Shown here one piece after another: positions 2,614-53,511 of a stretch of 64,000 bases of DNA; the stretch's first letter is position 1, and each line of letters starts with the position of its first letter. Location of the stretch: positions 24,248 to 88,247 of the forward strand of contig DDYW01000021.1 of the NCBI GenBank assembly GCA_002348185.1, read 5' to 3'. Below the pieces are notes generated by a model that saw only the letters and a program-made list of their open reading frames with translations, had not been told where the DNA came from and did no database searches. Origin of the DNA: Candidatus Hydrogenedentes bacterium UBA2224. GTDB taxonomy: Bacteria > Hydrogenedentota > Hydrogenedentia > Hydrogenedentales > SLHB01. Position numbers and translations under genes: made by a program.

Positions 2614-2799
2614 TCACCGTGTCAATGCGCCTCGGTGTGTAACTGCCGCGTCCGCTTCTCGCTTCTCACACCAAGCCACAAAGACACAAAGACACAGAGA
2701 GGCCTTCTGTCTCAATCCAGGGCGCCATTGATGATGCGTGATATGCCGTGCGAAGGTCGCGAACAGGACGGGGTGAGTGCACACTGGGCCCCTGCTTTC

Positions 2800-2857
2800 G
2801 CAGGGGAGACGGGAGGGGCAGGGGGAACGGGAGAGGGGCAGGGGAGACGGGAGAGGC
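2800..2857 (+). repeat. purine-rich ~19-bp tandem repeat (3 copies) with many G3-G5 runs
   Basis: gcaggggagacgggagggg / gcagggggaacgggagagggg / gcaggggagacgggagagg, read directly. Confidence 0.7.
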
Positions 2858-2902
2858 GCGTACCCCATAGGGCGCACCGCAAAAGACACCCCCACGGAAA
2901 AC

Positions 2903-2935
2903 GCGCGGCGCCGGAGATCGACCCCGGCGCCGCGC
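2903..2935. terminator. 12-bp perfect GC hairpin between convergent genes (candidate bidirectional terminator)
   Basis: gcgcggcgccgg-agatcgacc-ccggcgccgcgc. It lies between the stops at 2613 (+) and 2983 (-). No clear U-tract. Confidence 0.45.
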
Positions 2936-2982
2936 GCGCAATGTAACCTCTCGCTCTTTGTTCTTGCTGACGTTTCCCTGTG

Positions 2983-3681
2983 CTATTCCGTCAGAGTGAC
3001 CGCGTCGGCCCTTGCCTGCTGGCTGAGGCTGGTGTTCTTGACCGCCTCGTCCGAGGCCTTCTTGCCGCAACCCGAGCCGCATGCGGACGCGCAACCCGAG
3101 CCCGAAGAGCAGCTGGACTCGCCCTTGCGACCGCCCTGTTTCTCGTCGGACGCCAGCGCTGCCGCTTTCGCGGCGGCCAGCGGACACGAGGCTTCGTCCA
3201 CGGCGGCCTGCAGGCCGCACGCCGCACCCTCTGCCTTCGCCGCTACGCCGCAGGCGGCCCCTTCAGCCTTGGCAGCCGCACCACACGCGCCGCCTTCAGC
3301 CTTGGCAACGGTCCCGCACGCGGCGCTCTTCGCTGCACCGCACGCGCCGCCATCAGCCTTGTCCGCCGCAGGCCCGGACTTCTGCGTGGCCGCATATTCG
3401 GCCCACACCGCCTGGCTGCGGCCCTCTTTGGTGTTCAGGTCGGCGGTTTTCGCCGCGCTCGCAGACGTGTCTTTTCCACACGCCCGTCCGCGTTCACTGT
3501 GGGCGTTCGCGGCGGTTTTGCCTTTACTACAGCCCGCCTCTGACGATGCCTCGCACGACTTCTTGCCTGCGTCGTCGACCCCCGCGCTGAGCGCCTGCTG
3601 ACCGGCCAGCCCGAAGGCAACCGCGGCGACTCCCACGATGAAAACGACGGCAAACGGTTTCAAGAATCTCACATTTTTCAT
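2983..3681 (-). CDS. membrane-anchored/secreted Cys-Ala-Gly-rich repeat protein (possible metal- or redox-binding)
   Basis: GGAGAG box 9 nt upstream of the ATG. N-terminal hydrophobic helix FAVVFIVGVAAVAFGLAG. Three AKAEG(G/A)ACG(A/V)A repeats and a C-terminal SSCSSGSGCASACGSGCG; 14 Cys in total. Confidence 0.65.
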   Translation of the reverse strand: MKNVRFLKPFAVVFIVGVAAVAFGLAGQQALSAGVDDAGKKSCEASSEAGCSKGKTAANAHSERGRACGKDTSASAAKTADLNTKEGRSQAVWAEYAATQKSGPAADKADGGACGAAKSAACGTVAKAEGGACGAAAKAEGAACGVAAKAEGAACGLQAAVDEASCPLAAAKAAALASDEKQGGRKGESSCSSGSGCASACGSGCGKKASDEAVKNTSLSQQARADAVTLTE

Positions 3682-13091: not shown

Positions 13092-13365
13092 GCCCGCGCA
13101 CCCACCGTCGAACGCTTACCCAGAGCGGCCACGGGGCCGTTGACTCGGGCCAGGCGTCCCTACAGCACACGAGAAGAACCGCCTGCGGCTGCTTCCGTCA
13201 GGATCTGACCGGGTTCAGCAGCTTCCCGTTGAGTAGGACCCAGCCGTCAGCGCCTCGTACCCCGCGCCTGACCAAAAGGCAAGACGCCCTCGGGTGGGAA
13301 TTCGACCTCGCTAAAGCGGATTGCGAGTGCAGGACACCGCTAACTTCCCGTCTAGCGCGGGCAAA
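13092..13365 (-). ncRNA. ffs: signal recognition particle RNA, long Bacillus-type with an Alu domain
   Basis: The reverse strand contains GGUCAGAUCCUGACGGAAGCAGCC (domain IV). It also contains an Alu-domain block GACGGGAAGUUAGCGGUGUCCUGCACUCGCAAUCCGCUUUAGCGAGGUCGAAUUCCC, closely parallel to B. subtilis scRNA. 5' GCCCGCGC pairs with 3' GCGCGGGC, followed by a U-run. Classic position upstream of dnaX. Confidence 0.88.
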
Positions 13366-13427: not shown

Positions 13428-13557
13428 TTTACCCGTTTCGTCCCGAACCATTGGCTAACGCGAAGGCTGATTACTCCGATGCGTGCGCCTTCGGGCGCTG
13501 GAGCTTTTGTCGACTCACCCACGTGGTGAAACAAGAGACGATTCTGCCTTCCGGGGT

Positions 13558-13820
13558 GCCAAAGGCGCGAAAACATGCCAGCCCAGCCCGCAGGGCTCCG
13601 AGTCCCGCAGGGACGGCAGACCGAAGCGCCCATGTTCTCGCGTCTGGAGCGCCGAAGGCGCGAAAACATGCCAGACCAGTCCGCAGGGCTCCGAGTCCCG
13701 CAGGGACGGCAGACAATAGCCCACCACTTCAGGAACCTCCGCATCCCTCGAATCACAAGTCCCGTAGGGACGGCAGACCGAAGCGCCCATGTTCTCGCGT
13801 CTGGAGCGCCGAAGGCGCGG
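13558..13820. repeat. ~93-bp tandem repeat, about 2.7 copies with one internal replacement
   Basis: The unit gccRaaggcgcgaaaacatgccagNccagNccgcagggctccgagtcccgcagggacggcagaccgaagcgcccatgttctcgcgtctggagc recurs at 13558 and 13651. The second half recurs at 13758. Confidence 0.8.
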
Positions 13821-13833
13821 CGGAGACGTGCAC

Positions 13834-13878
13834 GAGGCGGACGGTATGGACAATATGGACGGCATGGACGGTATGGAA
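13834..13878 (+). repeat. 9-bp-phased RTGGAC array (5 units)
   Basis: gaggcggac ggtatggac aatatggac ggcatggac ggtatggaa. Confidence 0.8.
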
Positions 13879-14092
13879 ACATCCGTCTTGGCGTCTTGGC
13901 GCCTTTGCGTGAGGCGCTGGTCCGCCCGTATCGCATTTCCCACCCGCGATTCGGATCCCTGGGGTGGCCGGTTGCACCTGTCGCCCGCAGCGGATATGCT
14001 GGCCTCTGAGCAGCGGTTCCTGCCTCCGCGCGGCACGAGGCGCCCGCGCAGGAGAGACGGAAGAGACCAATGGCGAGAGGGAGAGGGTACCC

Positions 14093-16837: not shown

Positions 16838-19800
16838 TTAAAAGCCGGTGCACACGGCAAGGTGACCGTCTCGTGTCCCGAATACCACGGCACGTTCGCC
16901 AGGCAGGGCGAGGATCTTCGTCGGGGTATCCGGGAGCCGGCCCTGACGCACGGGCGTTCCGGCGGCGTCGAGCACCAGCAGATTTCCGTTCTCCCCGCCC
17001 ACGACAATGCACGGAGCATCGCCGCCGCCGGGCGTGATGCAGGCGAGCGTCGTGGGCACAAAAGGCAGTCGCCGCGACCAGAGTTTTTCGCAGGTGCCGG
17101 TCAACGCCACGCACAAGCGGTCGACCGTGGCCACGGCGATGTCGGGAACCCCGTCGCCGGTAAGGTCGCCGGTGTCGATATCGCGCATGTTCACATACGG
17201 GATGGCCTTGCCGGGACCGAAGCTCGCATCGTATTCCGCCGTGCCGTCCGGCCGCCACACGGTGACGCGGTTCCACACGCCGTTGATCTCCGTCATGAGC
17301 TCGGGTTCGCCATCGCCGTCGAAATCGTCGAAGAAAATGTGTTCGCGGTTCATGGCGGACCATCCGGGCACGTGGGTATGGCCTTCCGGCACGGAATCAA
17401 ATCCGCGGGGGCTGGGATCCAGCGTCGCGCTGTTGATGATACCCAGGGTGTTGGAGCCGTTGTAGCGGCGCGCGGCGAGCAGGGTGTGGGACCCGTTGGG
17501 GCCGGGAATCAGCTTCATCACGGAGACCTTGCCCCAGAATTGCGGCATGCGGCGCACGAGCCGGCCGGTTTCGTCCAGAATCTCGAGCGTGCAGGCGGAA
17601 CCCACGAACGCCATGGGCGTGCCGTCGATGAACGGCCCCGAATACAGCCCGTGAATGCCCTCGTGACCCGGCGCCGACTTGAACCAGTAGGTTTTGGCTG
17701 CGCGATAGACTTCCGGATCCATCTCCGAAACGAAGACCCACCTGCGGTTGCCGTCGCGGTCGAACGCGATGACCTTCTCGTCCGCGCACCCCGCGAGCAG
17801 CAACTGCGGTTCAGGCCACCAGTGGAGCATGCGGACGGGGCCGTCGGTCGAAAACGCCGCCACCGGCTCGCCTGAAAGCGACATCGCGTGGATGGTCTGG
17901 CCTTCGGCGGCATAAAGCCGCGTCCCGTCCGGCGCCGCGACGAGGTCCATGATCGCAGCATCGCCCGTTTTCACCGCCGTGCATTGCAGTTCGGGGAGGG
18001 CCTGTTCCGCGGCGGTCGCGGTGTCGGCCGTCTGGCCGGCATGAGTTCGGGCCTGTTCCAGGCAGGCCGCCAGCCACGCGCGCACGGCCGGAAGCATGGG
18101 GGCGGGCGCGGGGGCGGGACGCGTCTCAGGCGGCTGCGCGCTATTGGCCGAGGACGCGAGGGTCATCTCGCCGCGTGCCAGGTTCCAGTCGATGTCCATG
18201 GGTTCCGCGCTCTTAAATACCGGACTCAGTCCCGGCACGGCCAGTTGAACAACGCCTCTTCCGTAGAAATGCGTCTCCGACAGCACGGCGAACTCGGCCT
18301 CGATGCCCTCGTACGTGCCGGCGGCCGCGAGTGCGAGTTCGGGCGTCAAGAGGACGGCCGCGTTTCCGGCGAGGCGCAGGCAGGCCACCTCGGTCTCCGT
18401 CTCGGTGGGCACGCCGGTGACCAGCGAGAAGAACCGCAGCGTTTCGCCGGTGCGGGCCGGGCCGAGCCACTGCATGGCCGCTTCATACCCGTTGCGGAGG
18501 AGGGTGACGTCGGACGCGGTGCAGATCAGGGGGATGCGCGGCACCGGGGCACTGAGGGGCCGGTCGAGGCGCATCTGGTTCGGACGCTCGGGCCCGGCAA
18601 GCCAGTTGCCGCCCCGGGTCTCCCAAAGCAACTGGACCTCGAGGTTCTCGGTGTCGATGCGCGGCGTCAGTTCGTCGAGCACCAGGGCATACCGGCCCGG
18701 ACGGTGGACCAGCGCCCGCCGCCAGGAGGCGAACGGCATGCCGGGCACCTCGGCCACGGCGACGACCGTCTCGCCCAGCACCCGGCAGTGTTTGAGGGCC
18801 GCGTCCATCGCGACGGTCTTTTCGGTGAGGCCATCGGCCCGCGTGCGGAGCTGGTTCAGGTACCCTTCGAGCAGGGTGGCCCCGTCCTGCCGCAGCGCGA
18901 GGATCGCGAACGTGTGATAGGGGTTGCGGGACGCCCCGTTGAATCCGTCCAGGAGGATGAAATCGCCCGTGGCGTCAGGACGGTTGCGGTAGCTCATGAA
19001 CAGGAACGATTCGTCGAGCGGGAATCCGTTGTTCCGCCATTTCCACATGGGTTCAGGCATCGCGTGGATCCGCCAGTCGCCCACCATATCGTCCGGCGGC
19101 ACGGGCTGGAGGTGGTCTTCCGGCCAGTACGATTGCCCGAGCCGGAAGAGCGCGGTATCGACGCCCGTGCGGTTGCGGTAGGTGAGCCAGCGGCCGTCCT
19201 GCATGAGGTACGCGGCCTGGTGCAGGAACCCCACCGAGGCGTAGTGCAGCGCCCAGTCGCCGTCTTTTCCCGAAGCGAGGATTTCGAGTCCGCGCAACAA
19301 TTCCGCGGCGACGCCGTTCTCGAGGGGCACACGGTCGCCGGTCAGCAGCAGGTAGCTGAAGATGGGCGCAATGGCGGTGTCGTACCAGAACAAATTGTCG
19401 TTTTCGCCGCTGACCCAGGCGTGTTCGTGCAGCGACCGGAAATGGTTCGCGCCGTTTTGCTCGCACACCGGCCAGACGGGGTCGTCGTAATCTTTGGCGA
19501 AATACCGGCCAAGGCAATACAACGAGATGGCGGTCCACTGTCCGTGCCGCGACCCGACCTGGGAGGGGATGGCCGCGTAGGGGCCGGCATAGGCCGAAGC
19601 GATGCCGGGATGCGCGAGCTGCTGCGCGAATGCCCGGGTGACGCGCAACCGTTCGTCGTCCGTGAAGACGGGGCTCTCCTCGATGAGGTCCCAGAAGAGG
19701 ATCATGAGGTGCGCGTTGTAATGGTAGGGCCCGCCGAGGGGATTGTCCTTGTTTTCGATACGTTCCCCGTCGATTTCGGCGATCTCCGCCCTGGCTTGGG

Positions 19801-21040
19801 CGTCGGGGAACGCGAGGCGGAGCGCCTCGCGCGCGTGAAACGCGTCGCCGGTCATGTAATACATGGCCATGCGTTTGCTGATGCTGTTCCACCCGAAATA
19901 GCCGATCGAGCCGTAGCCCGCCGAGGCTTCCCAGGCCTCGAACTGCCGCAGGTCCGTGGGGGGCGTGAGGCCGTCTCCGAGTTCGATTTCCATCAGCCAC
20001 GGCACGTCGAGCGCCGAGCCCGGCGGCCTCTCCGAGACGCGTTGTGCAAACGCCGTGGCGGCTTTGCCGACGCCCGCCGGGTCGCTCCCGCCCAGAAACA
20101 CCACGTTGTGGCCGTCGCCCATCGGATTGTGAAGCGTTCGGACAACGTAGCCCCCCGGGCCGGGGTACCGCAGGTCGAGAAGCGTGTAGTACCGGTTGTA
20201 GAGCTGGCCGATAAACCGGTTCGTGGAGCGGTTGCCGAGGGCGATGACATTCCGGTCGAAGGGCAGGCCCACGGCGTCATCGGAAAAGACGGGCAGTTCC
20301 GCGCCGGCACACGCCCGGATCGCCGCGTTCACCGCGGCTGCGTGCTCCGCATAGGCCGCCGGCACCACGATGGCCGCGACCGCCTGGCCGCCGGCGACCA
20401 GGGCCGTTTCGAGGTAGAGCGGTTTGAGCGCCTCGATTTCAGGCACTTCGGGGGCGCTGGGCAATCCCATCCCGGCCGGCAACTCGGCTACGGCCGCCAG
20501 CGAGACGTCATCGACCCGCACCTGCGTCACCGGGTCGCGGTGGGTATAGAGATACAGCACCGCTTCCCGGGTATCCGGCGGGGCCACCTTCCCCACCTCG
20601 ACGCGGTTGAACGTGCCCGGCAAACCGGGGACAAGCGGGCGCTGGACGTATTTTCCCGACGGCAGAAACCGTAACTGGAGGTAGGCCCCGGCGGGTGAGG
20701 CGTTTTCAACCCCCATGACCGATACGCCCGCTACATAAGGCGTGCCGGGCGCCGCCGGGACCCGCTGCACAATGCCCAGCTCTCCTCCGGGATGGCCGTC
20801 TGCGAGCTGCAGGGCCCGCCCTCCCTCGCCCGGCAGGTCCACCAGCGACAGCGCCCGCTGTTCGTCAATCTGGCCGTACAACCCCCAGCCGGCCGGGACG
20901 CCGGTATCCGACGCGCCCTCCTCGAACGAGGGGTTCCGGAGGAGGTTTTCCTCTCCGGACGGTTCCGCCGCGAACCCCGGCGCCCCACAGACGGCAAGCA
21001 CGCCCATACAAAGAAACGTCAGGCCAGGGCATCGGGTCAT
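16838..21040 (-). CDS. 1400-aa secreted multidomain protein: CBM4/9-like domain, large alpha-helical middle, C-terminal beta-propeller with FG-GAP/VCBS-type Ca-binding loops
   Basis: Signal peptide MTRCPGLTFLCMGVLAVCGAPGFA. NPSFEEG start of a galactose-binding-like module. C-terminal DDFDGDGEPEL and DTGDLTGDGVPDIAV loops. Confidence 0.85.
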   Translation of the reverse strand: MTRCPGLTFLCMGVLAVCGAPGFAAEPSGEENLLRNPSFEEGASDTGVPAGWGLYGQIDEQRALSLVDLPGEGGRALQLADGHPGGELGIVQRVPAAPGTPYVAGVSVMGVENASPAGAYLQLRFLPSGKYVQRPLVPGLPGTFNRVEVGKVAPPDTREAVLYLYTHRDPVTQVRVDDVSLAAVAELPAGMGLPSAPEVPEIEALKPLYLETALVAGGQAVAAIVVPAAYAEHAAAVNAAIRACAGAELPVFSDDAVGLPFDRNVIALGNRSTNRFIGQLYNRYYTLLDLRYPGPGGYVVRTLHNPMGDGHNVVFLGGSDPAGVGKAATAFAQRVSERPPGSALDVPWLMEIELGDGLTPPTDLRQFEAWEASAGYGSIGYFGWNSISKRMAMYYMTGDAFHAREALRLAFPDAQARAEIAEIDGERIENKDNPLGGPYHYNAHLMILFWDLIEESPVFTDDERLRVTRAFAQQLAHPGIASAYAGPYAAIPSQVGSRHGQWTAISLYCLGRYFAKDYDDPVWPVCEQNGANHFRSLHEHAWVSGENDNLFWYDTAIAPIFSYLLLTGDRVPLENGVAAELLRGLEILASGKDGDWALHYASVGFLHQAAYLMQDGRWLTYRNRTGVDTALFRLGQSYWPEDHLQPVPPDDMVGDWRIHAMPEPMWKWRNNGFPLDESFLFMSYRNRPDATGDFILLDGFNGASRNPYHTFAILALRQDGATLLEGYLNQLRTRADGLTEKTVAMDAALKHCRVLGETVVAVAEVPGMPFASWRRALVHRPGRYALVLDELTPRIDTENLEVQLLWETRGGNWLAGPERPNQMRLDRPLSAPVPRIPLICTASDVTLLRNGYEAAMQWLGPARTGETLRFFSLVTGVPTETETEVACLRLAGNAAVLLTPELALAAAGTYEGIEAEFAVLSETHFYGRGVVQLAVPGLSPVFKSAEPMDIDWNLARGEMTLASSANSAQPPETRPAPAPAPMLPAVRAWLAACLEQARTHAGQTADTATAAEQALPELQCTAVKTGDAAIMDLVAAPDGTRLYAAEGQTIHAMSLSGEPVAAFSTDGPVRMLHWWPEPQLLLAGCADEKVIAFDRDGNRRWVFVSEMDPEVYRAAKTYWFKSAPGHEGIHGLYSGPFIDGTPMAFVGSACTLEILDETGRLVRRMPQFWGKVSVMKLIPGPNGSHTLLAARRYNGSNTLGIINSATLDPSPRGFDSVPEGHTHVPGWSAMNREHIFFDDFDGDGEPELMTEINGVWNRVTVWRPDGTAEYDASFGPGKAIPYVNMRDIDTGDLTGDGVPDIAVATVDRLCVALTGTCEKLWSRRLPFVPTTLACITPGGGDAPCIVVGGENGNLLVLDAAGTPVRQGRLPDTPTKILALPGERAVVFGTRDGHLAVCTGF

Positions 21041-21182
21041 GTCGCGCTCCTCCAGAGATTGGGAACACAATACCCCATCGCGCGACTCCGGGCCAGAGAC
21101 CGGAGAATCCGACTCACCGGGCACTCACGATTCGCGCGGGGGCGCCCCCGAGGCGGGTATGCACGACGCGGGCGGCGGCGTG

Positions 21183-21426
21183 GTGGACCCCATGGACCCG
21201 ATGGACGATATGGACGACATGGACGACCCGGTCTTTGACGCCATCGAAGGTGTCGAATTTGCCGTGGGCGAAGCGCGTGGCTCGGTGGCGCCGTCCGATA
21301 CCAACCCCCAAATCGGGGTTGGATAGTCCCTGCGCCTTTGCTTGCCCCCTTCGCCATCGTTCGGGCTGGCATGTCCATAGAGTCCATATCGTCCATCCCG
21401 TCCACCTGGTCCGCCGTGTCCACATC
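21183..21426. repeat. composite intergenic element: 5 x ATGGACNNN, ~145-bp core, 6 x GTCCATNNN (inverted arrays)
   Basis: Left array 21183-21227, right array 21373-21426. The core contains the ccaacccc-caaat-cggggttgg hairpin and aligns in reverse with the core at 50827-50978. Confidence 0.8.
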
Positions 21427-21584
21427 TCCGCGCTTGACCGCCGGCCAGACAGTTTTGTTCCTCTTGCTCCCGGTCGTGCCTGCCTGGGGAAACCGTGTTT
21501 TCCCTGCCCCTTTTCTATGGGGAGCGCGTCCAGTACAATACCCGGCAGGGCGAGTGTCCAGATAACCTATGGGGAGGGCGGTCC

Positions 21585-34597: not shown

Positions 34598-34862
34598 GAC
34601 GTTCTCCTTCCCCTGTGTCCCAGTACAGGACCACCCCCCGGGACCGGTTGACGGAATGAGTTTCCGCACCCGCTCCCGCGCGGGGCAAACGTATCAGCCT
34701 TCCGGCGCACCGGTTCTCGGAGTAGTCCGAGACCGGGTCCCCTGTTCCTTACGATGGTACCTTTCGCCGCGCCGCGCGTCAAGGCCGCGAATCGCGCCCG
34801 TTCGCCTGAGGATGGTAAGCGGTCCAGGATCACTGCTGCGGCTCTCGTGCGCTGTCCTCCAA

Positions 34863-34898
34863 GTGGACCCTATGGACGGTATGGACCCCATGGACGCG
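34863..34898 (+). repeat. 9-bp-phased RTGGAC array (4 units)
   Basis: gtggaccct atggacggt atggacccc atggacgcg. Confidence 0.8.
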
Positions 34899-35002
34899 CC
34901 TGCATCGGGATCGCTGATGTGAAATACGGTGAGAGGGATAATTGCCTCACACAAAGCCACAAAGCCGCCATGGAGGACATTCTGGACAAATCCGGGGCCT
35001 CG

Positions 35003-35078
35003 TTGTAGCGCAGGCGTCTCGCCTGCATTCGGGTCTGAGCCCGGAATCAAGAATGCAGGCGAGACGCCTGCGCTACAA
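35003..35078. repeat. 28-bp perfect inverted repeat with a 20-nt spacer; each arm holds its own 7-bp palindrome
   Basis: ttgtagcgcaggcgtctcgcctgcattc ...20 nt... gaatgcaggcgagacgcctgcgctacaa. Inner palindrome gcaggcg-nnn-cgcctgc. Confidence 0.85.
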
Positions 35079-35365
35079 GAATCCCGCTCTTTTTCGGTGC
35101 CTTTGAACTCGGAGGACTCTGCGCTCTCTGTGGCCGATTTCTTTGCCGGGCCGACGCGCCTGGCCCGGATGGGCAGCCACGGGGGGCTGTCCCTACAAGG
35201 GGAACCTGATGGGCAACGCCGTAGACGCTGAAGATGGGACTCCGGGGAGCCCGGAACGGGGTCCAATGTGAGTCGACATAATGGATCGACCGGCGCGATT
35301 CGTAGCATCGTAGGTTAAGCCAGGAATAACCGCAGCCCAGGGATCATGCGCGGGGGGGTTGTGTC

Positions 35366-39995: not shown

Positions 39996-40154
39996 GGTCA
40001 GCCCCTCCGGCGGGTTGCATGGCTCTTTCACCGTAACTGGAAGCATAGCACAACAAATTCCAGGCTGTTCCAGTGGCGCGAGCACAACCGGGGGCCAGTC
40101 ATCTGCGTCTCGCGTCGCGGACCTCGGCGCTGTGCCTGCGCTCTTCCCGAAGTA

Positions 40155-40295
40155 TCAAGACGACGCTGCAGACCAGCCGGACGACGCGATGGTTGTCAGG
40201 GCGAATTTGAGGGTATGGCTGGCCGTCTTGAGGTCGTTTTCGGCCTTGATGGTCCACTCATGCACCACCGCGACCAATTCGTCACGGCCTGGCAT
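40155..40295 (-). pseudogene. 5' remnant of a HEPN-domain toxin gene (46 codons)
   Basis: MPGRDELVAVVHEWTIKAENDLKTASHTLK matches the first HEPN helix. The ORF stops before any Rx4-6H motif. It overlaps the MNT stop by 14 nt as in intact MNT-HEPN pairs. Confidence 0.45.
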
Positions 40296-40608
40296 AGAGG
40301 ACCTTTCCCTCGCGTGCCGCGGGTTCCTCGATGGTGCCGATGATTTTCCGGCGCCACGCGAACTCCTCGGGGGTGCTGACAATGATGTCCTTCGGGACGG
40401 GAATACTGTGCAGAGCGACACGAATTTCAATCTGTTTGGCGCGCTTCGAGCCTTCAACCGGCATGACCACGAGCAGATCAACATCGCTGTCCGGTCCCGC
40501 GTCCTCCCGCGCATGTGAGCCAAACAGGATGATTTGTTCGGGTTGAAACTGGTCCACGATTCGGCGCACCATGGCGTCGATAGTGCTCGCGTCGACTTTC
40601 GGGGTCAT
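40282..40608 (-). CDS. minimal nucleotidyltransferase (MNT) antitoxin-type protein
   Basis: IILFGSHAREDAGPDSDVDLLVV (GS...DxD). GAGGGTG box before the ATG at 40608. Confidence 0.8.
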   Translation of the reverse strand: MTPKVDASTIDAMVRRIVDQFQPEQIILFGSHAREDAGPDSDVDLLVVMPVEGSKRAKQIEIRVALHSIPVPKDIIVSTPEEFAWRRKIIGTIEEPAAREGKVLYARP

Positions 40609-40769
40609 ATCATCACCCTCTGCCTGAAAACGCGCAACCTGCGTGCTCCCACAGGGCGGTCCTTCAACCGCCACATCATTATGCCCCAGACAACGGCATC
40701 ATGTCATCAGCGCCCGGCGCTCCCCGTGCGAACGAGGGGCATTCGAGAGGGGTCATCCGGGGCGGCGCG

Positions 40770-41058
40770 GTGGACATTGCGGACCCTGTGGACCGTGTGG
40801 ACCGTATGGACGTCCTTGCCTTGATGATTTGGAAGGGGGCGAGTCTCAGACCAGGCTTGACTGTATCGCGCCACCCTCGCAACGCAGCAAACCGCTCCGG
40901 GGGCCCCGGAACGGGGTCCAATTTGAGCCGTGACGCAGCCCATGGAGCAGCCGCAGCACAAGAAACCCAACTCTGACAGGGGTTGAACAAAGGCGCCGGG
41001 TCTTTTCAACCCCTATTCGGGGGTTGTGAGGGATGATGCGCCTGATCCACGGGTTTCA
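40770..41058 (+). repeat. member of the mosaic repeat family: 5-unit RTGGAC array, ~150-bp inserted module, three-part hairpin core
   Basis: Array 40770-40814. GGGGTTGAA 40979-87, TTCAACCCC 41005-13, GGGGGTTG 41019-26. The 3' end ...ccacgggtttcaccc overlaps the thioesterase stop codon. Confidence 0.8.
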
Positions 41059-41475
41059 CCCCTTGTTCTTCGGCTCTAGCTCGGCCCTCAGCGCGGTGAG
41101 GACATCGTTAGGCAGCGCGACGGCCCGGCGGGTCTGGGTGTTGACGGCGCAGTGGACGGTGCGGAGTCTGCAGGCCAGGTGGCCGCCGGCATTGAGGAAT
41201 TCGTAGTCGATGGTGAAGGTTCGGCTGCGCAGCTCGACGACGCGCAGGCGGATAAGTGCCCGCTCTCCGACGAAGAGTGGGCGGCGGTAATCGCTTTCGG
41301 CATGCACTACGGGGATGAGGTAGCCGGTGGTCCGGATCAGGTGTCCGATATTGAGGCCGTGGGAGTCCAGGAAGGTCTCGTAGGCGTCGTGGGCCAGGGC
41401 GAAGTAGCGGCCGAAGAACAACACGCCGGCGGCGTCGCCGTCGCGCAGGGAGATGCGGACCGGGTAGGTAAACAT
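41056..41475 (-). CDS. acyl-CoA thioesterase (4HBT/YbgC-like hotdog fold)
   Basis: FTYPVRISLRDGDAAGVLFFGRYFALAHDAYETFL and AESDYRRPL. AAGGGGG box upstream. Confidence 0.85.
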   Translation of the reverse strand: MFTYPVRISLRDGDAAGVLFFGRYFALAHDAYETFLDSHGLNIGHLIRTTGYLIPVVHAESDYRRPLFVGERALIRLRVVELRSRTFTIDYEFLNAGGHLACRLRTVHCAVNTQTRRAVALPNDVLTALRAELEPKNKG

Positions 41476-44196: not shown

Positions 44197-44299
44197 GTGT
44201 GCGCTCCTTGTCACAATGCGTTTCGTACATGGACGGTGACCCATTTTAGGCCATCGAGGAGGGGTGTGCCAAATCGCCGCGGCGACGGGCCAGCAGGAT

Positions 44300-44335
44300 G
44301 TGGACGGGATGCACGGTATGGGTGGGGTGGATTCC
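44300..44335 (+). repeat. degenerate 9-bp-phased RTGGAC-like array
   Basis: gtggacggg atgcacggt atgggtggg gtggattcc. Confidence 0.4.
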
Positions 44336-49265: not shown

Positions 49266-50713
49266 GGCGCGGCCTCCTGTTCCGCCTGTTCGCGTCGTTC
49301 GATGCTGCTGCGGGCACGTTCCCACATGCCCGACACGCGGTCCTGCACCTGCGTCACCGCTTCCCGGGGCGAGGCTTGGCCGAACATGACCTGGTCGAAG
49401 GCCGGGGTGATCTCATCGTTGTATTCGAACCATGTGCTCATCAGCGGCGCATAGAATGCGTTGGGGCTCTTCGCCAGTTCAATGAACAGCTCGATATACG
49501 GGTTGGGATGGCTGGCCAGAAACTCCGGGCTGACCGCTTTGAGCGGGGTGAACTTCTTGTGGCCCAGGTTGAGCAGTTCCAGGCCCTCCTGCGAACACAG
49601 GTAGCGGATGAACTCGAAGGCTTCATCCGGATGCCGCGCGCCCACCGGGATGCAGATCGAATCGCACTCCACCATGGCCACGTTGTCGAGCCCCGGCACC
49701 GCCGAGGGAAACGGCGCGGCGCCCCATTCGAGACCGGGCGCGTAGGTGTCGATGAAACTCGCCATCCACACGCCCTGGACGATCATCGCCACACGCTCGG
49801 TGAAGAAGGCGTTCTGGGGCGAGGCGAACTGCCCGGCAATCCCGCTCTGAAACCGGCGCAGCTCCGCCGCGCCGTATTTCTCGGGGTAACTCTGGATCCA
49901 TTCCCACGCGGCCAGGTTCTCGGGGGTGTCGAAGGTTACGCGCTCGCCGTCCCACAGCGCCCCCCCGAACCAGTAGCCCCACGACCAGTGCCACCATCCC
50001 GGTTCCGACGGCGTGAACCCCACCTGCACCAGGTGGCCTTGCTCGTCGTAACGGGTCAGTTTCGCGGCCATGGCATCGAGTTCGGCGAGGGTCCGGGGCG
50101 GCCGCTCCGGATCGAGGCCCGCCTCGCGAAACAGCCGTTTGTTGTAATGCAGCGCGGTCGTGGCCGGCGTCGTGGGCAGCCCGTACAGGGTGCCCCGGTA
50201 GGTGTTCTGTTCCAGGAACACGTCCAGGAACGTGTCGCGCGGCATGCCCGTCTTTTCCATGAAGGGTTCGAGGGGCATGAGGGCGCGTTTCTCGGCGAAC
50301 TGCGACAGTCCCGCGCTCCAGAGACCCACCAGGTCCGGCGGATCGCCCCCCGCGATCGCCACCAGCGCTTTCCGATCGATCTGGCTCATCGTGACCAGAT
50401 TGACGCGGATGCGGTCCTGTTTCTCATTAAACCGGTCCACGACCCGCTGGATGGCCTCGCCTTCAAAGCCGGTCCATTTCTCCCAGTAGGTGATCTGCAG
50501 GCGGCCGTCGACGTAATCGTCCTGCGGCTGAGGAATGATGACGTTGCAGCCGGAGAGGGCGCTGACGCTCACGAGCACCAGGCACGCTGCGACGAACCAG
50601 GACGATGTGACGCGGCGCACGGGCAGGATGCCGCATGGCCACCGGATCCCCGGCCTGTCTTGGTAGTCTTCCACGATCTCCCCCAAACCGGCACACGGAA
50701 AACATCCTGGCAA
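49262..50713 (-). CDS. ABC transporter extracellular solute-binding lipoprotein (family 1, sugar type)
   Basis: Lipobox VSALSGC, ITYWEKWTGFEG. The real start may be the GTG near 50620 rather than the ATG at 50713. Confidence 0.85.
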   Translation of the reverse strand: MPGCFPCAGLGEIVEDYQDRPGIRWPCGILPVRRVTSSWFVAACLVLVSVSALSGCNVIIPQPQDDYVDGRLQITYWEKWTGFEGEAIQRVVDRFNEKQDRIRVNLVTMSQIDRKALVAIAGGDPPDLVGLWSAGLSQFAEKRALMPLEPFMEKTGMPRDTFLDVFLEQNTYRGTLYGLPTTPATTALHYNKRLFREAGLDPERPPRTLAELDAMAAKLTRYDEQGHLVQVGFTPSEPGWWHWSWGYWFGGALWDGERVTFDTPENLAAWEWIQSYPEKYGAAELRRFQSGIAGQFASPQNAFFTERVAMIVQGVWMASFIDTYAPGLEWGAAPFPSAVPGLDNVAMVECDSICIPVGARHPDEAFEFIRYLCSQEGLELLNLGHKKFTPLKAVSPEFLASHPNPYIELFIELAKSPNAFYAPLMSTWFEYNDEITPAFDQVMFGQASPREAVTQVQDRVSGMWERARSSIERREQAEQEAAP

Positions 50714-50790
50714 CGCCAGATGTCTCTAGCATACACATTTCGCGGCGTGGAGGTGAATGGCGTTGGCCGGGGGCAATCGGCGGTGGCGTG

Positions 50791-51005
50791 GTGGACCCTA
50801 TGGACGTCATGGACGCAATGGACGTGGATGTCCGAACGATTGCGAAGGGGTTGAACAATGTCGCCGGGCTTGTTCAACCCCCATTCGGGGGTTGGGATAG
50901 GGGGGATGCGCCCGATCCACGGGCTTCACCCGCGGCTTCTCAAATTCGACACCTTCGGTGTCGTTGGGCGGCAAGGCCGTCCACCAGGTCCACCGGGTCC
51001 ACCGG
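50791..51005. repeat. composite intergenic element: 4 x RTGGACNNN, ~150-bp core, 3 x GTCCACNNN (inverted arrays)
   Basis: Arrays 50791-50826 and 50979-51005. The core has GGGGTTGAACA 50847-57, TGTTCAACCCC 50871-81 and GGGGGTTG 50887-94. Confidence 0.85.
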
Positions 51006-51128
51006 GTCGTGCTTACGCGGCGATTCGGGAGGCAGCTCCCTTCGGGAATTCGCGCGCGTTTCGTGGTATCCTAACACCCAATTCCCATGAGCCGTTTCTG
51101 AGGTCCATCTACCGGAGGAGGTCTCTCC

Positions 51129-52253
51129 ATGGCTGCCGTGAACCACCGTCTGCTGCTTGTGCTTGCTGTTGCGCTTACGTTCGTGCTGTTCCCGGGATGC
51201 GCGCCGAAGGAGACTCCGTCCGCCGAACCGTCCGGTGCGGGCGAGCCCGCGGCTCCGGCCGAACCCGCGCCACAGCCCGAAGCGGCCGCGCCGGCGCCCG
51301 CCGCGATCGGCGACCCGGTGGCGGCGATGGCGGAGCCGCCGGCCATGCCGAAAGGGTACGGTTCGAGCGCCGAGGTGATGCTGGCCATCGGGAACGGCGA
51401 TCTCGCACTGCTCGACGAGAACCCGCCGGTGCCGGAAGGCGTGAACGAACTCGCCGGGCTCGAGTATTGCAGCATCGACGGGACGTCTCTCAAACTCGAT
51501 CTGGCGTTGCCCGCCGAGGGCGACGGGCCGTTTCCCGGCCTGATCTTCATTCATGGAGGCGCCTGGGTCAGCGGCGAACGCGAGATCTACCATCTCTATA
51601 CGTACCATTTTGCGCAGCAGGGGTACGCGGCCGCCACGATGTCGTACCGGCTCTCCGGCCAGGCCAAGTTTCCCGCGGCGGTGCAGGACGTGAAATGCGC
51701 GGTCCGGTGGATGCGCGCGAACGCCGCCACGTACAACATTGATCCCGACCACATCGCCTTGATCGGTGGGTCGGCGGGCGGCCATCTGGCCATGATGGTG
51801 GGGTACACCGCCGACGTGCCGGAATTCGAGGGCGAAGGCGGCAACCCCGGCGTCAGCAGCGCGGTCCAGGCTGTCGTCAACTTCTACGGTCCCTATGACC
51901 TCACCGCGGAGATCGCGCAGAAATCGGACGATGTGCAGGGCTTCCTGGGCGCGACCTGGGAAGAGAATCCCGACCTGCATCTCAAGGCGTCGCCGATGCA
52001 CTACCTGAACGCGGGCGATCCGCCCACCCTGATCTTCCATGGCAGCATCGACGAGGTGGTGCCGATCGAACAATCCGAACGACTTGCGGCGCGCCTCGGC
52101 GAGCTGGGCATCCCCTGCGTCTTCGAACGGTTCGAGGGGTGGCCCCATACCATGGATCTCGCCCAGCCGGTCAACGAGCGCTGCCGCTGGTTCATGTACC
52201 GGTTTTTTGAAGCGCATCTCTCGCCGAAACCGGCCGCGGGCGCCCCGCAATGA
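51129..52253 (+). CDS. alpha/beta hydrolase (carboxylesterase/lipase-type) lipoprotein
   Basis: Lipobox LFPGCA, IFIHGGAW (HGG oxyanion motif), GGSAGGHLA nucleophile elbow. GGAGGAGG box upstream. Confidence 0.85.
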   Translation: MAAVNHRLLLVLAVALTFVLFPGCAPKETPSAEPSGAGEPAAPAEPAPQPEAAAPAPAAIGDPVAAMAEPPAMPKGYGSSAEVMLAIGNGDLALLDENPPVPEGVNELAGLEYCSIDGTSLKLDLALPAEGDGPFPGLIFIHGGAWVSGEREIYHLYTYHFAQQGYAAATMSYRLSGQAKFPAAVQDVKCAVRWMRANAATYNIDPDHIALIGGSAGGHLAMMVGYTADVPEFEGEGGNPGVSSAVQAVVNFYGPYDLTAEIAQKSDDVQGFLGATWEENPDLHLKASPMHYLNAGDPPTLIFHGSIDEVVPIEQSERLAARLGELGIPCVFERFEGWPHTMDLAQPVNERCRWFMYRFFEAHLSPKPAAGAPQ

Positions 52254-52398
52254 GGATGGCCGGCGCCGGTTTGCAGGGGTTTGACCCGGGTGTGTCGCCG
52301 ATGGCTACGCCATTCTCGCGGCGGTGCTGATCGACGGGTTTCTCGAACAGGCCGAATCCACTCGCGGTTTCATCAAGGGCTATTCGTAGGAGTGCACG

Positions 52399-53349: not shown

Positions 53350-53380
53350 GCCGGCTCGGGGATCCGGGGGCGCGGGCACT

Positions 53381-53460
53381 GTGGACGGTATGGACCCGAT
53401 GGACGTTCTTGCCTGAATGACGGCGAAGGGGTCGAACCACGGCGCCGTGTTGCCTTGACC
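53381..53460 (+). repeat. truncated copy of the mosaic repeat (3-unit array plus the left part of the core)
   Basis: gtggacggt atggacccg atggacgtt, then cttgcctgaatgacggcgaaggggtcgaaccacggcgccgtgttgccttgaccccc, alignable to 50818-50882. Confidence 0.7.
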
Positions 53461-53511
53461 CCCCCTTCCCGCGGGCGCAAAATAGAGCCGAAGGGTTTCG
53501 GGTGCGATGCC

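Follow-up and report, generated by a model that had tools for sequence, protein, structure and literature searches.

What are the short RTGGAC strings that recur between genes in this DNA, and what reads them? Most of what is known of dispersed intergenic repeats comes from Proteobacteria, in which REP/RAYT elements affect transcription termination, the stability of mRNA, supercoiling and the plasticity of the genome. The window analysed here, a stretch of 64,000 nucleotides with a GC content of 65%, belongs to a Candidatus Hydrogenedentota MAG, of a species present in anaerobic-digester and sewage samples. A GC3-based gene map, combined with Pfam domains, assigned to it glycoside hydrolases, FG-GAP/RGL11-like proteins, sugar ABC transporters, esterases, type II secretion parts and DnaX, and revealed no transposase, integrase or cas genes in the window. 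A large-type SRP RNA is also encoded and was the sole Rfam family to reach its gathering score over the window.

Chaining GGAC at 9-bp spacing yielded eight RTGGAC-NNN arrays in the window, each of three to six units in strict 9-bp phase, together with one decayed remnant (Table 1). The pattern RTGGAC-N3-RTGGAC-N3-RTGGAC, with two mismatches at most, matched 21 times, against 0.02 matches expected from shuffled sequences. All of the arrays listed in an earlier sequence-only reading of the window were present within 3 bp of where that reading had placed them, and the gene map and Pfam domains located every one between genes, as it had claimed.

Table 1. Arrays, composites and core features of the RTGGAC elements in the window
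Feature	Positions	Strand	Description
Solo array	13837-13878	+	4-5 units: GCGGAC, ATGGAC x3, ATGGAA
Left arm, second composite	21183-21224	+	5 units
Core, second composite	21225-21372	-	homologous to 50824-50978, reverse orientation
Right arm, second composite	21373-21423	-	6 units; outer GTGGAC/GCGGAC, inner ATGGAC
Solo array	34863-34895	+	4 units
Array at left end of one-armed composite	40770-40811	+	5 units
Mosaic core, one-armed composite	40812-41061	+	longer than composite cores; holds 85% copy of 50846-50931
Decayed array remnant	~44298-44330	+	GTGGAC/ATGCAC/ATGGGT/GTGGAT
G-rich outer flank GGCGGTGGCGTG	50779-50790	+	reads as decayed 9-bp units; 85% identical to 21171-21182
Left arm, composite	50791-50823	+	4 units: GTGGAC-CCT-ATGGAC-GTC-ATGGAC-GCA-ATGGAC
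Mosaic core, composite	50824-50978	+	lineage-specific
Core block CCGAACGATTGCGAAGGGG	50832-50850		
Core hairpin 1	50847-50881		segments GGGGTTGAACA (50847-57) and TGTTCAACCCC (50871-81)
Core hairpin 2	50875-50894		CAACCCC-N5-GGGGTTG; includes GGGGGTTG (50887-94)
Core block GATCCACGGGCTTCACCC	50914-50931		
Core hairpin	50947-50963		CGACACC-TTCG-GTGTCG
Right arm, composite	50979-51002	-	3 GTGGAC units on the minus strand, decayed fourth to ~51011
Array	53381-53404	+	3 units
Half-core gttcttgcctgaatgacggcgaaggggtcgaa	53405-53436	+	

At two sites, 50791-51002 and 21183-21423, arrays face inward around a mosaic core of ~150 bp. The first of these composites had been described in the sequence-only reading and was confirmed here; the second is organised in the same way. 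Including their G-rich flanks and decayed units, they extend over 50779-51011 and 21171-21430. The recurring unit consists, from outside to inside, of a G-rich stretch (GGCGGYGGCGTG) in which decayed units can be recognised, an array with GTGGAC or GCGGAC outermost and ATGGAC innermost, and a segment of ~30 bp (gYCCTTGCC..GAAYGAY..CGAAGGGGTYGAAC), and two such units placed face to face around further modules make up a composite. DNA homologous to that of the sister species (locus L245) stops at GGGCAATCG just upstream, setting the boundary at ~50779. The G-rich leader, array and half-core at ~53350-53436 form a segment of ~85 bp, and the core of the one-armed composite contains a module that it has in common with 35240-35272 and with a composite of the sister species. 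As the sequence-only reading had proposed, the core can be aligned with other copies: positions 50790-51008 matched 21406-21195 (reverse) at 71% over 219 bp, 50846-50931 matched 40978-41061 at 85%, and 53374-53463 aligned partially. The window copies are 71-85% identical to each other.

Three core segments, GGGGTTGAACA, TGTTCAACCCC and GGGGGTTG, lie exactly where they had been reported, and the middle one had been suggested to pair with either neighbour in two alternative hairpins. Comparison of the three full core copies showed that the second hairpin is kept in all three, whereas the longer GGGGTTGAACA/TGTTCAACCCC hairpin is lost in the copy at 21300. One hairpin is therefore conserved, and the riboswitch-like idea of a choice between two gained no covariation support from three full copies. 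No sigma-70-like promoter or intrinsic terminator was found inside the composite, and Rfam gave no match at E<=1 in 50600-51200. We also considered a sigma-54 reading of TGGAC-N4-TTGC and rejected it by reasoning from the sequence, since its GG-GC spacing is 8 and not 10.

To follow these elements between relatives, we compared the window with orthologous contigs from a sister species, whose genes are ~91% identical in nucleotide sequence, and from a relative at 80%. Genes were collinear and aligned end to end, but the array-bearing intergenic segments did not align. Over ~50 kb of shared DNA the sister species has one array and the window eight, and the 80% relative has none in 13 kb. The ~85-bp segment at 53350-53436 is missing from three sister-species contigs and from the 80% relative (L241, L242, L245 and L243), in all of which the distance between the stop codon and a conserved GCCTTGAC is 18-19 bp. 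In L245, the composite (50780-51036) is replaced by a different MITE of ~390 bp with GGGCAATCGCAC termini, which also replaces the 34788-35348 segment carrying array 34863 in the sister species. The sister has ~100 unrelated bp in place of 40710-41055 and 66 bp in place of 13435-13967; the array at 13837-13878 is embedded among other repeats in a block of 530 bp that is missing from the sister, and the 21183-21423 composite adjoins a 4.3-kb gene absent from that species. Conversely, at the site orthologous to the decayed 44300 array the sister retains a full composite, whose right arm has four, three or two GTCCACTCT units among strains, an exact 9-bp ladder. The decayed array is what is left of the composite that the sister keeps. 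No clean empty site, termini or target-site duplication could be defined at the compared junctions because the flanks are too different between these species. Together, these results amount to presence/absence polymorphism relative to the sister species, along with unit-number variation in 9-bp steps.

The array was also sought in other genomes by its pattern. A four-unit pattern (20 fixed bases and four purines) is expected to match ~0.07 times in 596 Gb of one-per-species genomes; at least 120 matches were found. Among the 120 matches listed, 89 had variable spacers, 19 were perfect or nearly perfect repeats and 12 were TGGACC-type coding repeats of collagen-like Gly-Pro-X genes, a class that includes the viral match L142. 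The 89 variable-spacer loci came from ~13 phyla, by record title, at 37-70% GC: Lentisphaerota (11), Desulfobacterota (10), Hydrogenedentota (8), Sumerlaeota, Cloacimonadota and Planctomycetota (6 each), Verrucomicrobiota, Chlamydiota and Chlorobi (5 each), Acidobacteriota (4), Nitrospirota and Myxococcota (3 each), Zixibacteria and others; these counts are lower bounds, and the absence of a phylum from the matches listed means little. Genomes with arrays include those of Oligosphaera ethanolica DSM 24202, Victivallis vadensis, Akkermansia, Chlorobaculum and Chthoniobacter; O. ethanolica, V. vadensis and Chlorobaculum are in culture and rich in arrays. A BLAST search with a synthetic array gave no match among GenBank phages or PLSDB plasmids, probably owing to the low-complexity filter. 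Copies within one genome have non-array flanks in common. The core is confined to the lineage of the window, and the arrays are the conserved part. The sequence-only reading had centred the element on its composite core; the mosaic family is genuine, but its core is lineage-specific and the arrays are what is conserved across phyla.

As a control, we masked 300 bp around each triggering array and rescanned the same loci. Eight further variable-spacer TGGAC arrays appeared, compared with zero to two for each of the 59 other pentamer permutations, and TGGAC at periods of 7, 8, 10, 11 or 12 bp gave zero to two arrays each, so the excess was found at period 9 only. A logo of 118 arrays displayed an invariant R-T-G-G-A-C followed by three nearly free, weakly purine-biased positions, which argues for selection on the hexamer rather than simple slippage. 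This bears on the proposal that the arrays are neutral slippage minisatellites without function, alike across phyla by mutational or compositional coincidence. The exact 9-bp-step length polymorphism between strains would suit such an origin, as would the perfect or near-perfect arrays (19 of the 120 matches listed). Slippage, however, would make all units alike, and these arrays combine a constant hexamer with variable spacers; this hexamer at this period turns up again from 37 to 70% GC where 59 permuted pentamers and other periods fail, and the orientation of neighbouring arrays, described below, is non-random (36 versus 4). We therefore consider neutral minisatellites improbable.

A coding origin had been dismissed in the sequence-only reading on the ground that a 9-bp period is no codon artefact. 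That argument was wrong in principle because nine bp are three codons, and collagen-like Gly-Pro-X genes do match the pattern outside the window (the 12 of 120 listed matches mentioned above). As coding repeats the units would read Met/Val-Asp-X, or Gly-X-Y in another frame, and in the phage contigs L166, L181 and L207 the arrays fall inside the longest ORF predictions. For the window, in contrast, a collagen-like or tripeptide coding repeat was rejected, since its arrays lie between genes with a clear GC3 signal and Pfam domains, and spacers in the RTG frame include TGA, TAA and TAG. Neither coding repeats nor an assembly artefact would account for arrays that occur on either strand, as inverted pairs and in independent assemblies, and we regard both as barely credible. 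RTGGAC strings occur between genes in at least 12 other bacterial phyla, and they are therefore probably read by a DNA-binding protein.

Arrays follow a rule of orientation. At least two GTCCA partners within 120 bp were found on the 3' side in 36 of 118 arrays and on the 5' side in 4 of 118, indicating that paired arrays point inward; inverted partners are convergent nine times as often as divergent. The window has two composites, and there are 22 convergent pairs overall; gaps measure 5-155 bp, and about two thirds of the arrays have no partner. Spacer complementarity between paired arms was weak (0.37 against a null of 0.27 ± 0.04), suggesting that the hexamers, not a perfect hairpin, are maintained. 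On the outer side, a run of at least five G within 45 bp accompanied 18% of arrays compared with 3.6% of the background, a fivefold excess seen across phyla, and C-runs were absent there. Besides these upstream G-runs and the inverted hexamers downstream, no other flanking motif was common across phyla.

With respect to genes, arrays occupy all four intergenic configurations, and convergent regions are over-represented (~21 of 70, by crude gene calls). The promoter-proximal bias inferred from the window alone is thus not general. The array strand agreed with that of co-directional genes in 17 cases and opposed it in 15, again by crude gene calls, and no preference was seen relative to nearby gene starts (8 versus 10). 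The lack of strand bias argues for action at the level of DNA. CsrA-type or Rho-utilisation RNA sites were rejected for the same reason.

These data also bear on whether the element might act as RNA or single-stranded DNA, its convergent arms folding into a long hairpin of 6-bp helices split by 3x3 loops. Roles suggested for such a structure include a terminator or stabiliser, sequestration of a ribosome-binding site, and display of repeated (A/G)UGGA motifs that a CsrA-like or ring-shaped RNA-binding protein would bind. The single strand of the composite does fold more stably than shuffled sequences, with its arms paired (z of -4.0 as RNA and -4.5 as DNA), convergent regions are enriched, and spacer complementarity slightly exceeds the null; in phage contig L166, three inverted pairs bracket the starts of terminase and portal-region genes, enclosing the Shine-Dalgarno sequence and start codon of successive genes. 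Against this stand the absence of strand bias relative to transcription in genomes, the majority of arrays that have no partner, spacers that are mostly non-complementary, the location of both window composites between divergent genes, the lack of a U-tract terminator or Rfam match, and the three full core copies, which supply no covariation support. A role as RNA or single-stranded DNA is accordingly rather unlikely in our judgement.

Arrays also occur in short intergenic gaps of phage-like contigs, and they lie upstream of gpW/portal genes at the same junction in six related lambda-like phage contigs. Such a recurrent position would be expected if a conserved transcription factor or nucleoid-associated protein of the host used the arrays as operator or nucleoid-organising sites, the elements themselves being immobile and their turnover reflecting ordinary intergenic decay and recombination. 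The hexamer is kept across phyla while its flanks are lineage-specific, and arrays are often near gene starts, especially in phage-like contigs (17 versus 7). The array grammar, in which repeats are direct or convergent and seldom divergent, resembles the heptad operators of omega-type ribbon-helix-helix repressors. Yet no function is common to the neighbouring genes, arrays are over-represented in convergent (3'-end) intergenic regions, sites are not kept between species at 91% identity, and copies in one genome share non-array flanks like duplicated elements. We therefore consider fixed host sites unlikely.

How do these arrays compare with described repeats? A search of the literature by sequence and by concept found no description of an RTGGAC 9-bp array family. 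A REP is a single imperfect palindrome of 20-40 bp with a 5' GT[AG]G or CGTC tag at the foot of its stem (PMC3733652, PMC6006769). No such tagged stem-loop was found in the window elements, whose arms are hexamer arrays of 27-51 bp. Like RAYT-mobilised REP/REPIN/BIME elements, the arrays are short, abundant (eight to nine in 64 kb), strictly intergenic and often at 3' ends; their mobile-looking form is an inverted doublet and the composites are mosaic, their single strands are strongly structured, and they turn over between close relatives. Unlike a REP, the arm consists of tandem hexamers whose 3-bp spacers are free, complementarity between the arms is not required, and array-bearing loci contain no RAYT near the arrays; REP sequences also vary between species, whereas the RTGGAC hexamer is constant across phyla. 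The statement of the sequence-only reading that this is not a described REP/BIME or CRISPR-like family holds, the elements lacking both the GTAG/CGTC features of REPs and the GGGGWSAS-type TIR (PMC3733652, PMC6006769) and being absent from Rfam.

With MITEs such as Correia/NEMIS, and with the GGGCAATCGCAC-TIR element of the sister species, the elements share a length of 85-260 bp, a non-coding, intergenic character, inverted ends, presence/absence polymorphism and mosaic interiors. Their ends, however, are arrays of variable unit number and not a fixed TIR, and inverted ends were found in the two composites and not in solo arrays. STRR of heterocystous cyanobacteria are heptamer tandem units dispersed at many intergenic sites, and omega heptads and MetJ 8-bp boxes are contiguous short units, each bound by one protein in a cooperative manner, that can be arranged directly or convergently. 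The RTGGAC arrays resemble STRR as short tandem units at many intergenic sites, but they differ from STRR, plasmid iterons and omega/MetJ operators in having a 9-bp unit with a fixed hexamer and free spacer, in occurring in many phyla, and in having no associated replicon or regulon. A CRISPR array (24-48-bp repeats, 25-70-bp spacers, cas) was rejected, since the conserved part is 6 bp, the spacer 3 bp, and no cas domains occur in the window. DnaA boxes (TTWTNCACA; TTGTCCACA in high-GC bacteria) were likewise rejected: GTCCAC corresponds to positions 3-8, but positions 1, 2 and 9 are unconstrained, and the logo has GTCCAT as commonly as GTCCAC.

TnpA of IS607, a serine transposase, pairs the ends of its transposon after nucleating on subterminal 9-bp motifs in direct repeat (PMC6188088). 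Several direct 9-bp repeats are common to IS607 ends and RTGGAC arrays, and the cooperative filament that captures a second end is described for IS607 (PMC6188088). The IS607 motifs are helically phased (~10 bp apart), element-specific and flank the transposase gene; RTGGAC units are contiguous at 9 bp, are kept across phyla and show no gene linkage. With no GTAG/CGTC stem-loop or parent IS, no Y1 gene found in the array-bearing loci and no target duplication defined at the junctions compared, the arrays were not filed under any of the families considered. Their nearest genomic precedent is REP/REPIN, and their nearest mechanistic precedent is the IS607 end.

We also searched for a partner protein. 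All-against-all BLASTP of flanking ORFs revealed no recurrent protein family beside the arrays, and a Pfam scan of 150 adjacent ORFs returned phage structural genes and unrelated enzymes only. Among array-bearing loci, neither a parent or autonomous IS with the same array ends nor a gene-sized convergent array pair enclosing a transposase was found. Four candidates for an autonomous element were rejected, L142 and L230 as collagen-like or eukaryotic-virus-like coding repeats, and L052 and L166 as separate palindromes at gene junctions.

One class of enzyme merited a directed search. TnpA_Y1 proteins of subclass 2.1 (TIRYT) have a C-terminal HTH resembling DnaA domain IV, a reader of 9-bp boxes, and for most of them no cognate dispersed repeat is known (PMC6006769). 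They are, like the arrays, widespread and patchy across phyla (PMC6006769, PMC3733652). Tandem repeats abut the G-run TIR in TIRYT loci, comparable to the G-run followed by an array seen here, and the high-GC DnaA box has GTCCAC at its core. Neither a Y1 profile nor DnaA domain IV matched any of 17,074 ORFs in 261 array-bearing loci (~2.2 Mb), and an alignment-based scan of viral contigs detected no Y1-HTH relatives. Two Y1 consensus sequences each matched more than 8000 Y1_Tnp(+Bac_DnaA_C) proteins, and we examined 18 of the corresponding loci (L268-L285). Their genes lie between TIRs of the GGGTCAGGTCTACA, GGGGACGTTCGTG or GGGACGCCCTTAAC type, those of L268, L270, L274 and L277-L285 being of the GGGGWSAS type. 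Short tandem repeats abut the left G-run TIR (10 bp x3 in L285), and another TIRYT element, present in eight different contexts, has an 18-bp unit once or twice beside its left TIR. Neither the TIRs nor their tandem repeats contained RTGGAC arrays in any of the 18 loci, and no Y1 gene lies near the arrays, so the Y1-HTH link is no result but an analogy, based on tandem repeats that adjoin an end with a G-run.

By that analogy, RTGGAC arrays might be the cognate DNA of one clade within a very large orphan family, the HUH-Y1 (RAYT/TIRYT-like) proteins with a DnaA-domain-IV-like HTH. The hexamer would be a stripped-down DnaA box, the HTH would coat the array with one copy per 9 bp, and the Y1 domain would process the single-stranded palindrome. 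We regard this proposal as a long shot; if true, it would describe a second, cross-phylum REP-like system, horizontally spread among PVC, FCB-related, Desulfobacterota and Acidobacteriota lineages and their phages. Should the Y1 link fail, the alternative would be a conserved nucleoid or regulatory protein with a 9-bp binding register, new to description.

Taking all of these data into account, the reading that we favour, with about an even chance of being correct, is that these are non-coding, non-autonomous, REPIN/BIME- or MITE-like palindromic intergenic elements whose hexamer arrays serve as platforms for a putative sequence-specific protein. This reading rests on a selected hexamer with free spacers, a fixed register, an orientation rule, interiors particular to the lineage, fast gain and loss of elements, slippage of units and the occurrence of arrays in phages. 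The sequence-only reading had offered a regulatory, nucleoid or mobile role; of these, a MITE-like, mobile or protein-binding nature remains the best reading, with a mechanism that we infer. The functional module would be the head-to-tail 9-bp unit, RTGGAC plus three unconstrained bases; two arrays facing each other would serve as arms, and the intervening DNA would be a disposable, lineage-specific mosaic. Each hexamer may be the recognition site for one protomer or domain of the putative DNA-binding protein, which would bind along the array in a cooperative fashion, with a protomer every 9 bp, and the convergent coated arms could be brought together as in a paired-end or synaptic complex. 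The protein that reads the arrays might be the mobilising enzyme of the elements, acting in trans, or a host factor that they exploit. Unit number changes by slippage or unequal exchange in 9-bp steps, and in intergenic DNA there is quick gain, loss and replacement of whole elements.

Several observations sit less comfortably with this REPIN- or MITE-like reading. The loci examined yielded no binding protein or autonomous partner, an identity of 71-85% between window copies would be odd for a recent burst from one master, and contacts in a 9-bp register would fall on different faces of B-DNA, for which there is no exact precedent.

The observation itself is real, reproducible and wider in scope than the sequence-only reading had envisaged. 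One hexamer and one 9-bp register are common to intergenic elements of ~13 mostly uncultured phyla and of phages, which implies a conserved trans-acting protein of unchanged specificity, be it a mobilising enzyme that has been widely transferred or a factor of the host. Should the arrays turn out to be neutral satellites, the finding would be no more than a curiosity; there is a modest chance that they point to a cross-phylum protein–DNA system new to description. Variation in 9-bp steps provides a ready marker for strain typing. Finding the protein would annotate thousands of intergenic features that are now blank in genomes of PVC, Hydrogenedentota, Cloacimonadota, Chlorobi and related groups, and an orphan protein family might thereby gain a function.

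The window arrays starting at 50791 and 34863 occupy exactly the two sites at which the sister species, a collinear relative with ~91% nucleotide identity, carries a MITE different from the window elements. This MITE of ~390 bp is bounded by GGGCAATCGCACTWAA termini and contains two repeats of ~100 bp, and a GGGCAATCG remnant is retained in the window at 50771-50779. The 13837 array lies directly downstream of three copies of a ~62-bp repeat (CGCCGAAGGCGCGAAAACATGCCAG..CCGCAGGGCTCCGAGTCCCGCAGGGACGGCAGAC; 95-98% identical), and the 530-bp block holding these repeats and the array is missing as a whole in the sister species. The 21183-21423 composite lies at the junction of a gene difference, with an FG-GAP protein gene (1428 aa) in the window lineage only and a PDDEXK_3 gene (141 aa) at its position in the sister species.

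Only about 80 bp remain in the window of the HEPN partner of an MNT-type nucleotidyltransferase gene (NTP_transf_2), a partner that the sister species has intact (138 aa), indicating that the toxin-antitoxin-like pair is broken in the window. Between its genes for the esterase and for ketopantoate reductase, the sister species has an extra coding sequence of about 700 bp, which the window lacks at 52244-52298.

Other short repeats were found in the window. A near-perfect 76-bp palindrome (TTGTAGCGCAGGCGTCTCGCCTGCATTC...GAATGCAGGCGAGACGCCTGCGCTACAA) shares an intergenic region with the 34863 array. A second phased short-repeat family, unrelated to the first, has an 8-bp unit, (A)CACAAAG(C), and forms short arrays at two intergenic sites. 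ORF 2777-3601, which had no Pfam match, contains 2.5-2.8 copies of a 33-bp tandem repeat.

Arrays of the RTGGAC type were also detected outside the window. In a Sumerlaeia MAG (L010), a ~500-bp intergenic block consists of tandem ~90-bp higher-order units, in each of which inverted GTCCAC hexamers precede a GTGGAC array, so that divergent and convergent junctions alternate. The L166 array and window 21184-21216 agree in 32 of 33 bases, spacers included; this match, which could be due to chance, hints that L166 is a phage of the window's own lineage with the same array family.

Coordinates of the features described
Feature	Location	Strand	Details
Large (Bacillus-type) bacterial SRP RNA	window 13094-13360	-	182.8 bits, full length
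~62-bp repeats	window 13558-13819
FG-GAP gene	window 16838-21124
MNT-type gene	window 40126-40674
Palindrome	window 35003-35078
8-bp unit arrays	window 2668-2700, 34950-34966
33-bp tandem repeat	window 3214-3331
Sister MITE	L245 5497-5907; L253 about 3250-3560		L253 copy reverse complement
Sister extra coding sequence	L245 7116-7822
Sumerlaeia block	L010 4860-5390
ATGGAC-CCA-ATGGAC-CCG-ATGGAC-GAT-ATGGAC array	L166 1193-1305		phage-like contig
TIRYT tandem repeat (GAATATGGGGACGTTCGT)	L277-L284		x1-2; P0310 element
TIRYT tandem repeat (TGTGAAAGTC)	L285 about 2900-3000		x3

Tandem repeats also adjoin the left TIR of TIRYT (Y1_Tnp+Bac_DnaA_C) elements, and these repeats are candidate binding sites of the HTH domain. 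Since one identical TIRYT protein occurs in at least eight different genomic contexts, its element is probably active.
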